Shown here piece by piece: positions 1 through 555 of a stretch of 555 bases of DNA. Position 1 is the stretch's first letter. Each line of letters opens with the position of its first letter. The stretch lies in the sequence record EF517115.1. One strand, 5' to 3'. The DNA comes from a phage. A program made the translations under genes and the position numbers. The notes below the pieces were generated by a model that saw only the letters and a list, made by a program, of their open reading frames with translations, was not told where the DNA came from and did no database searches.

Positions 1-99
1 TAGAGTGCATAAAGTATGCATAATGGTGTACCTAGAGTGACCTCTAAGAATGGTGATTATATTGTATTAGTATCACCTTAACTTAAGGATCAACATAAA

Positions 100-107
100 G
101 GGAGGAG
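100..107 (+). promoter_or_regulatory. Shine-Dalgarno ribosome-binding site for the downstream small ORF
   Basis: GGGAGGAG at 100-107, purine-rich and complementary to the 16S rRNA 3' end, with a 4-6 nt spacer (ACTC) before the ATG at 112-114. Confidence 0.75.
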
Positions 108-111
108 ACTC

Positions 112-261
112 ATGTTCCGCTTATTGTTAAACCTACTGCGGCATAGAGTCACCTACCGATTTCTTGTGGTACTTTGTGCTGCCCTTGAGTACGCATCTCT
201 TACTGGAGACCTCAGTTCACTGGAGTTTGTCGTTTGCTCTATACTCACTTGTAGCGATTAA
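112..261 (+). CDS. Small hypothetical protein, 49 aa, homolog of T7 gene 19.5 product (function unknown)
   Basis: ATG at 112 preceded by a strong SD; open frame to TAA at 259-261. Hand translation: MFRLLLNLLRHRVTYRFLVVLCAALEYASLTGDLSSLEFVVCSILTCSD. All three reverse frames across this interval contain stops, so there is no competing antisense ORF. Length, position just left of the terminal repeat and sequence match my recollection of T7 gp19.5. Not independently verified. Confidence 0.8.
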   Translation: MFRLLLNLLRHRVTYRFLVVLCAALEYASLTGDLSSLEFVVCSILTCSD

Positions 262-500
262 GGTCTTCCTGACCGACTGATGGCTCACCGAGGGATTCAG
301 CGGTATGATTGCATCACACCACTTCATCCCTATAGAGTCAAATCCTAAGGTATACCCATAAACAGCCTCTAATGGTCTATCCTAAGGTCTATACCTAAAG
401 ATAGGCCATTCTATCAGTGTCACCTAAAGAGGGTCTTAGAGAGGGCCTATGGAGTTCCTATAGGGTCCTTTAAAATATACCATAAAAATCTGAGTGACTA
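262..500. other. Non-coding right-end region between the last gene and the terminal repeat; candidate concatemer-processing/packaging region
   Basis: No ORF longer than about 22 codons and none with a convincing RBS. Contains the CCTAARG heptamers and a short tandem unit. In T7-like phages this region lies directly left of the right terminal repeat. Confidence 0.6.
344..429 (+). repeat. Dispersed heptamer repeats CCTAAGG / CCTAAAG flanking the terminal repeat
   Basis: CCTAAGG at 344-350 and 381-387; CCTAAAG at 394-400 and 423-429. Further copies lie inside the terminal repeat (CCTAAAG 517-523; variant CCTAAAA 541-547). About 0.03 copies of a given 7-mer are expected by chance in 555 bp. Confidence 0.7.
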
Positions 501-555
501 TCTCACAGTGTACGGACCTAAAGTTCCCCCATAGGGGGTACCTAAAACCCAGTCA
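501..555 (+). repeat. Start of the direct terminal repeat of a T7-like genome (partial; continues past the window)
   Basis: TCTCACAGTGTACGGACCTAAAGTTCCCCCATAGGGGGTACCTAAA matches, from memory, the first bases of the T7 genome (160-bp terminal repeat in T7). Only the first 55 bp fall in this window. Confidence 0.75.
523..541. other. GC-rich hairpin-capable inverted repeat inside the terminal repeat
   Basis: CCCCC (526-530) / GGGGG (534-538) around a 3-nt loop ATA; extendable by G523:C541 and T524:A540 with one T/T mismatch at 525/539. Confidence 0.4.

Follow-up and report, generated by a model that had tools for sequence, protein, structure and literature searches.

Does the point at which unique DNA gives way to terminal-repeat DNA in this 555-nucleotide stretch of phage sequence (the window) correspond to an end of the mature genome, and if so, to which one? 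A sequence-only reading had placed base 1 of a T7-like terminal repeat at position 501 and described the step between 500 and 501 (500|501) as an exact mature-genome end or concatemer junction boundary. Here, the window is compared with T7, with annotated relatives and with assembled contigs carrying the same junction.

The window corresponds to the T7 right-end region

The best phage match is the T7 genome, to which positions 1-552 align with 98.4% identity (V01146 39278-39829, equivalent in NC_001604); no match reached 100%. Over all 555 bases, the ungapped alignment to V01146 39278-39832 contains 545/555 identical positions (98.2%), 10 substitutions and 0 indels. The similarity between the window and T7 is the result of homology and not of chance. 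The window very probably represents the right-end region of the T7 genome, from a strain with 10 point substitutions, and 500|501 the left boundary of its terminal repeat. It contains the following features:

1-111, plus strand: leader that follows promoter phiOR and includes the gene 19.5 Shine-Dalgarno region (T7 39278-39388)
112-261, plus strand: gene 19.5, 49 aa (T7 39389-39538)
291-331, no strand: conserved inverted repeat/hairpin (AGGGATTC...CATCCCT), centred at 311
344-429, plus strand: array of short repeats of the CCTAAAG/CCTAAGG type at the right end (copies at 344, 381, 394 and 423)
467-500, plus strand: conserved pre-repeat block (CCTTTAAAATATACCATAAAAATCTGAGTGACTA), kept across Teseptimavirus, Teetrevirus and Przondovirus
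500-501, no strand: boundary between the unique right end and the terminal repeat (T7 39777|39778), corresponding to base 1 at the mature left terminus
501-555, plus strand: nucleotides 1-55 of the 160-bp direct terminal repeat, opening with the conserved TCTCA and matching T7 1-55

Ahead of the window are the end of gene 19 (T7 39130) and the promoter phiOR (T7 39229), the latter 49 nt upstream of it. Gene 19.5 is the sole substantial open reading frame in the window with a known counterpart. Its product is identical to T7 gp19.5 at 47/49 residues, with the changes G26E and S39F, and the gene also contains one synonymous change and a TAA stop codon in place of TAG. The exact variant gp19.5 protein is not on record. 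Further copies of the CCTAAAG/CCTAAGG-type repeat are found inside the terminal repeat at 517 and 541, the second of which (541-547) is abolished by the G>A substitution at 547. An Rfam scan of the window (E<=1) returned no family, only a chance snoRNA match that scored 19 bits, the gathering score being 50. Scanning the window for sigma-70 promoters and intrinsic terminators gave no signal over shuffle expectation.

Position 501 is the first base of the terminal repeat

Both ends of the V01146 record were read directly. Bases 1-160 (TCTCACAGTG...GTGTCCCT) recur at 39778-39937, which defines the two copies of the T7 terminal repeat. Window position 501, equivalent to T7 39778, is therefore base 1 of the right copy, and the comparison bears out the earlier placement to the base. 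Positions 501-552 match bases 1-52 of T7 records with E = 2e-17 in a search space of 2.3 Gb, and most T7 records among those listed begin at the base equivalent to position 501. Over the whole repeat portion of the window, 53/55 bases are identical to T7 1-55, the differences being located at 547 and 553.

On the other side of the boundary, positions 1-500 correspond to T7 39278-39777 without a gap and constitute the unique right end, with gene 19.5 followed by the CCTAAAG-type short repeats. Unique right-end DNA thus abuts the repeat directly, as had been proposed. The segment 411-546, which extends across the boundary, is identical to T7.

The description of 500|501 as a mature-genome end is correct for one end only. 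It stands for the left end cut from the concatemer, which is homologous to the experimentally established T7 left terminus, but fails for the right end. The mature right end is the far edge of the terminal repeat, 160 bp downstream of 500|501 and 105 bp past the end of the window. In the right-end repeat copy of a linear genome, 500|501 is no physical end.

The boundary itself is not new. Knowledge of the T7 termini and of the 160-bp repeat dates back to the early 1980s. Both are recovered as a matter of routine with tools such as PhageTerm, which retrieved the T7 160-bp direct terminal repeat from read-start peaks (PMC5557969). The ends of T3 were mapped by next-generation sequencing, with base 1 at TCTCATAG / TCTCATAGTT... 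and the last base at ...GTGTCCCT (PMC3896407).

Within the repeat, window positions 526-538 form a perfect 13-nt palindrome (CCCCCATAGGGGG), which is imperfect in relatives (CCCCCCATAGGGG).

The boundary is conserved among relatives

We compared the window with five records in which the terminal repeats had been annotated by the depositors: phiA1122 (NC_004777), Cedecea phage Yanou, Klebsiella phages GP-5 and Oda, and T3 (NC_003298). In MAFFT alignments, the annotated first repeat base of all five (5/5) occupies the same column as window position 501. The motif common to these boundaries is ...CCTTTAA(A/G)AAT.T..CA.AAA..TCTGA.TG..TA|TCTCA(C/T)AGT. The window itself is T7 proper and none of T3, phiA1122, Yanou, GP-5 or Oda. 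The identity of the boundary, its exact position and its conservation are direct observations from these comparisons.

A sensitive search with window 421-555 detected matches in 357 phage records. In distant Autographiviridae, comprising Klebsiella, Dickeya, Pectobacterium and Vibrio phages, only positions ~467-535 can be aligned, at ~80% identity, forming an island that spans 500|501. The alignment of T7, T3 and Oda contains 14/20 invariant columns in window 481-500, compared to 0-7/20 in the five 20-nt bins upstream of it (401-480). The block at 467-500 is a candidate recognition sequence for left-end formation.

The 34-nt block together with the first five repeat bases TCTCA (467-505) is the best-conserved non-coding stretch across the three Studiervirinae genera and a candidate signal for left-end maturation.

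Private substitutions resemble a mutagenesis spectrum

The window differs from T7 at positions 90, 129, 188, 227, 261, 342, 363, 410, 547 and 553. G:C>A:T transitions account for nine of these changes and G>C for the remaining one; A:T>G:C changes are absent. The T7 base is present at these sites in almost all relatives examined, which identifies the window states as private and derived. Among natural close relatives, 37% of the changes in the same segment are G:C>A:T (Fisher p = 0.0035, the relatives not being independent of one another). The mutated G is preceded by a 5' purine in 8/9 cases. G:C>A:T changes at 5'-purine-G are a signature of alkylating mutagens such as MNNG.

Such a spectrum is more suggestive of chemical (MNNG-type) mutagenesis or cytosine deamination than of natural divergence, and a chemically mutagenised T7 lineage may be the source of the window. 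In that case, both copies of the repeat would need to contain the changes at 547 and 553. A mutagen was reportedly used in the Hillis/Bull experimental phylogeny. A passage of PMC8923235 cites Springman et al. 2010 for the application of MNNG to T7.

Other laboratory sources were considered for the variants. The heat-adaptation T7 genomes (PMC8923235) were rejected as their origin, with only ~10 substitutions fixed per genome. LySE hypermutator phagemids (PMC13236587) were also rejected, as the dual A+C deaminase generates all transitions and the window is devoid of A:T>G:C changes. Origin from a packaging phagemid or vector is unsupported, with no match among plasmids. The exact 30-mer containing both private repeat variants (window 526-555) had no match in IMG/VR, JGI metagenomes or GTDB genomes.

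Linear right end or assembly junction

The same junction can be present in a deposited sequence for different reasons. The window is more likely than not either the right-end repeat copy from a linear genome record with correct termini or a short sequenced fragment or amplicon of that region, in which case 500|501 would be an internal repeat boundary only. The repeat is present at both ends in 39/40 of the best T7 records, with the match located at the right end, and most T7-group records begin at base 1 of the repeat. The length of 555 bases and the mutagenesis-like spectrum both fit a short sequenced fragment from an experimental line. A complete linear genome, however, would reach nucleotide 160 of the repeat, whereas the window stops at nucleotide 55.

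It is quite possible, though short of probable, that the window instead originates from an assembly that is circularly permuted or concatemer-style and in which the terminal repeat is collapsed to a single copy. 500|501 would then be a true junction at which the termini are to be reset. In this layout, the single repeat (...GTGTCCCT) would continue into ATCTGTTACAG..., followed by phiOL, A1-A3 and gene 0.3. The heptamer ATCTGTT, a class II T7 RNA polymerase pause site, occupies T7 161-167 directly after the last repeat base, outside the window. We examined ten IMG/VR contigs carrying the exact junction 26-mer. Five of them (L003, L007, L009, L010 and L012) contain a single repeat followed by ATCTGTT and left-end DNA, while L004, L005 and L011 end with the repeat. 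In all IMG/VR relatives with a contig crossing the junction, ATCTGTT comes directly after the repeat. The five contigs with a single repeat are permuted or circular assemblies in which the repeat was collapsed, and their deposited coordinates consequently do not begin at the true terminus. A GenBank example is the T7 record OZ035731, which has unit length with one repeat (39,778 bp) and matches the window at 2755-3306. Counting against this layout, the window ends at repeat nucleotide 55, short of the sequence that would show it, and the majority of deposited T7 records are linear and have the repeat twice.

A chance likeness to the start of the T7 repeat, or a terminus shifted in this strain, would leave 500|501 without special status, but this is highly improbable. 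No evidence was found in its favor; two substitutions fall within the repeat portion (547 and 553). Against it stand the 52-nt match at E = 2e-17, the identity to T7 over 411-546 and a boundary column common to five relatives annotated independently.

Should the source prove to be a T7 assembly in circularised or permuted form, the boundary tells an annotator where base 1 belongs, and a single collapsed repeat is to be put back at both ends.

A conserved hairpin 190 bp upstream of the boundary

The center of the inverted repeat at 291-331 is located exactly 190 bp upstream of base 1 of the terminal repeat in T7, phiA1122, Yanou and the window. Folded as DNA, it has an energy of -8.5 kcal/mol (z = -2.2). 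The hairpin is found in T7, T3 and Przondovirus relatives, with an outer stem that is invariant in the three genera. Four of the inner pairs are retained through two-sided changes (four distinct sequences).

Chung, Nardone and Hinkle reportedly described in 1990 a 'hairpin' end on T7 concatemers, located ~190 bp leftward of the mature left end, that might serve as an intermediate in repeat duplication. The hairpin at 291-331 may be this structure. Alternatively, it may represent an RNA structure at the 3' end of the phiOR/19.5 transcript. As a tentative and rather doubtful proposal, the block at 467-500 and the hairpin could together constitute cis signals for left-end cutting and hairpin-primed repeat duplication across Studiervirinae. 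If true, a maturation signal common to the left ends could emerge from comparative analysis, for a process described in reviews as poorly understood.

Proposed role of the boundary in genome maturation

T7 replication generates head-to-tail concatemers joined via the repeat. PacB is the site recognised by the small terminase gp18, and gp19 makes its cut at PacC (PMC9860248, which refers to Chung and Hinkle 1990, Tsuchida 1996, and Fujisawa and Morita 1997). The direct terminal repeats have been described as the product of synthesis that extends the 3' ends at staggered nicks (PMC5557969). According to a 2026 review, the way in which initiation and termination make redundant ends is less understood than the cos or headful systems (PMC13595956).

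From the established work on T7 and T3, we infer cleavage at 500|501 and duplication of the repeat, as follows. In replicating DNA, genomes would be linked head to tail by a single copy of the repeat, so that the unique right-end sequence (window 1-500) continues straight into base 1. The terminase, with its small subunit gp18 and large subunit gp19, would recognise pac signals at the junction and cut in a sequence-specific manner, which may involve a double-strand cut or staggered nicks plus 3' extension. A break at 500|501 would give the mature left terminus its 5' end (5'-TCTCACAG...), while a break at the opposite edge of the repeat, 160 bp downstream and beside ATCTGTT, would create the mature right terminus. 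As the junction would contain one repeat and virion DNA two, the repeat would have to be copied by DNA synthesis during maturation.

Comparison with known systems

The closest known system is T7 itself (V01146/NC_001604; Dunn and Studier 1983). It has in common with the window gene 19.5, the short-repeat array, the pre-repeat block and the repeat start TCTCACAGTGTACGG. The window differs from it by the 10 point substitutions, nine of them G:C>A:T. Two of the 10 alter gp19.5 residues and one (547) breaks a CCTAAAG copy in the repeat. It also carries just the first 55 nt of the 160-bp repeat of T7.

In T3 and other Studiervirinae, the start of the terminal repeat aligns to position 501, and the core AAA(A/G)(A/T)TCTGA(G/A)TGnnTA|TCTCA(C/T)AGT is shared. 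Unlike the core, the sequence inside the repeat and farther upstream diverges between these phages and the window, and the repeat lengths vary between 148 and 239 bp (T3 repeat at 37978-38208).

Lambda-type cos sites resemble the T7 junction in that the terminase makes a fixed, sequence-specific cut in the concatemer. The products are different: cos cutting generates short single-stranded cohesive ends without duplication, while ends of the T7 type are blunt and include a direct repeat of 160 bp that needs to be copied (PMC5557969, PMC13595956).
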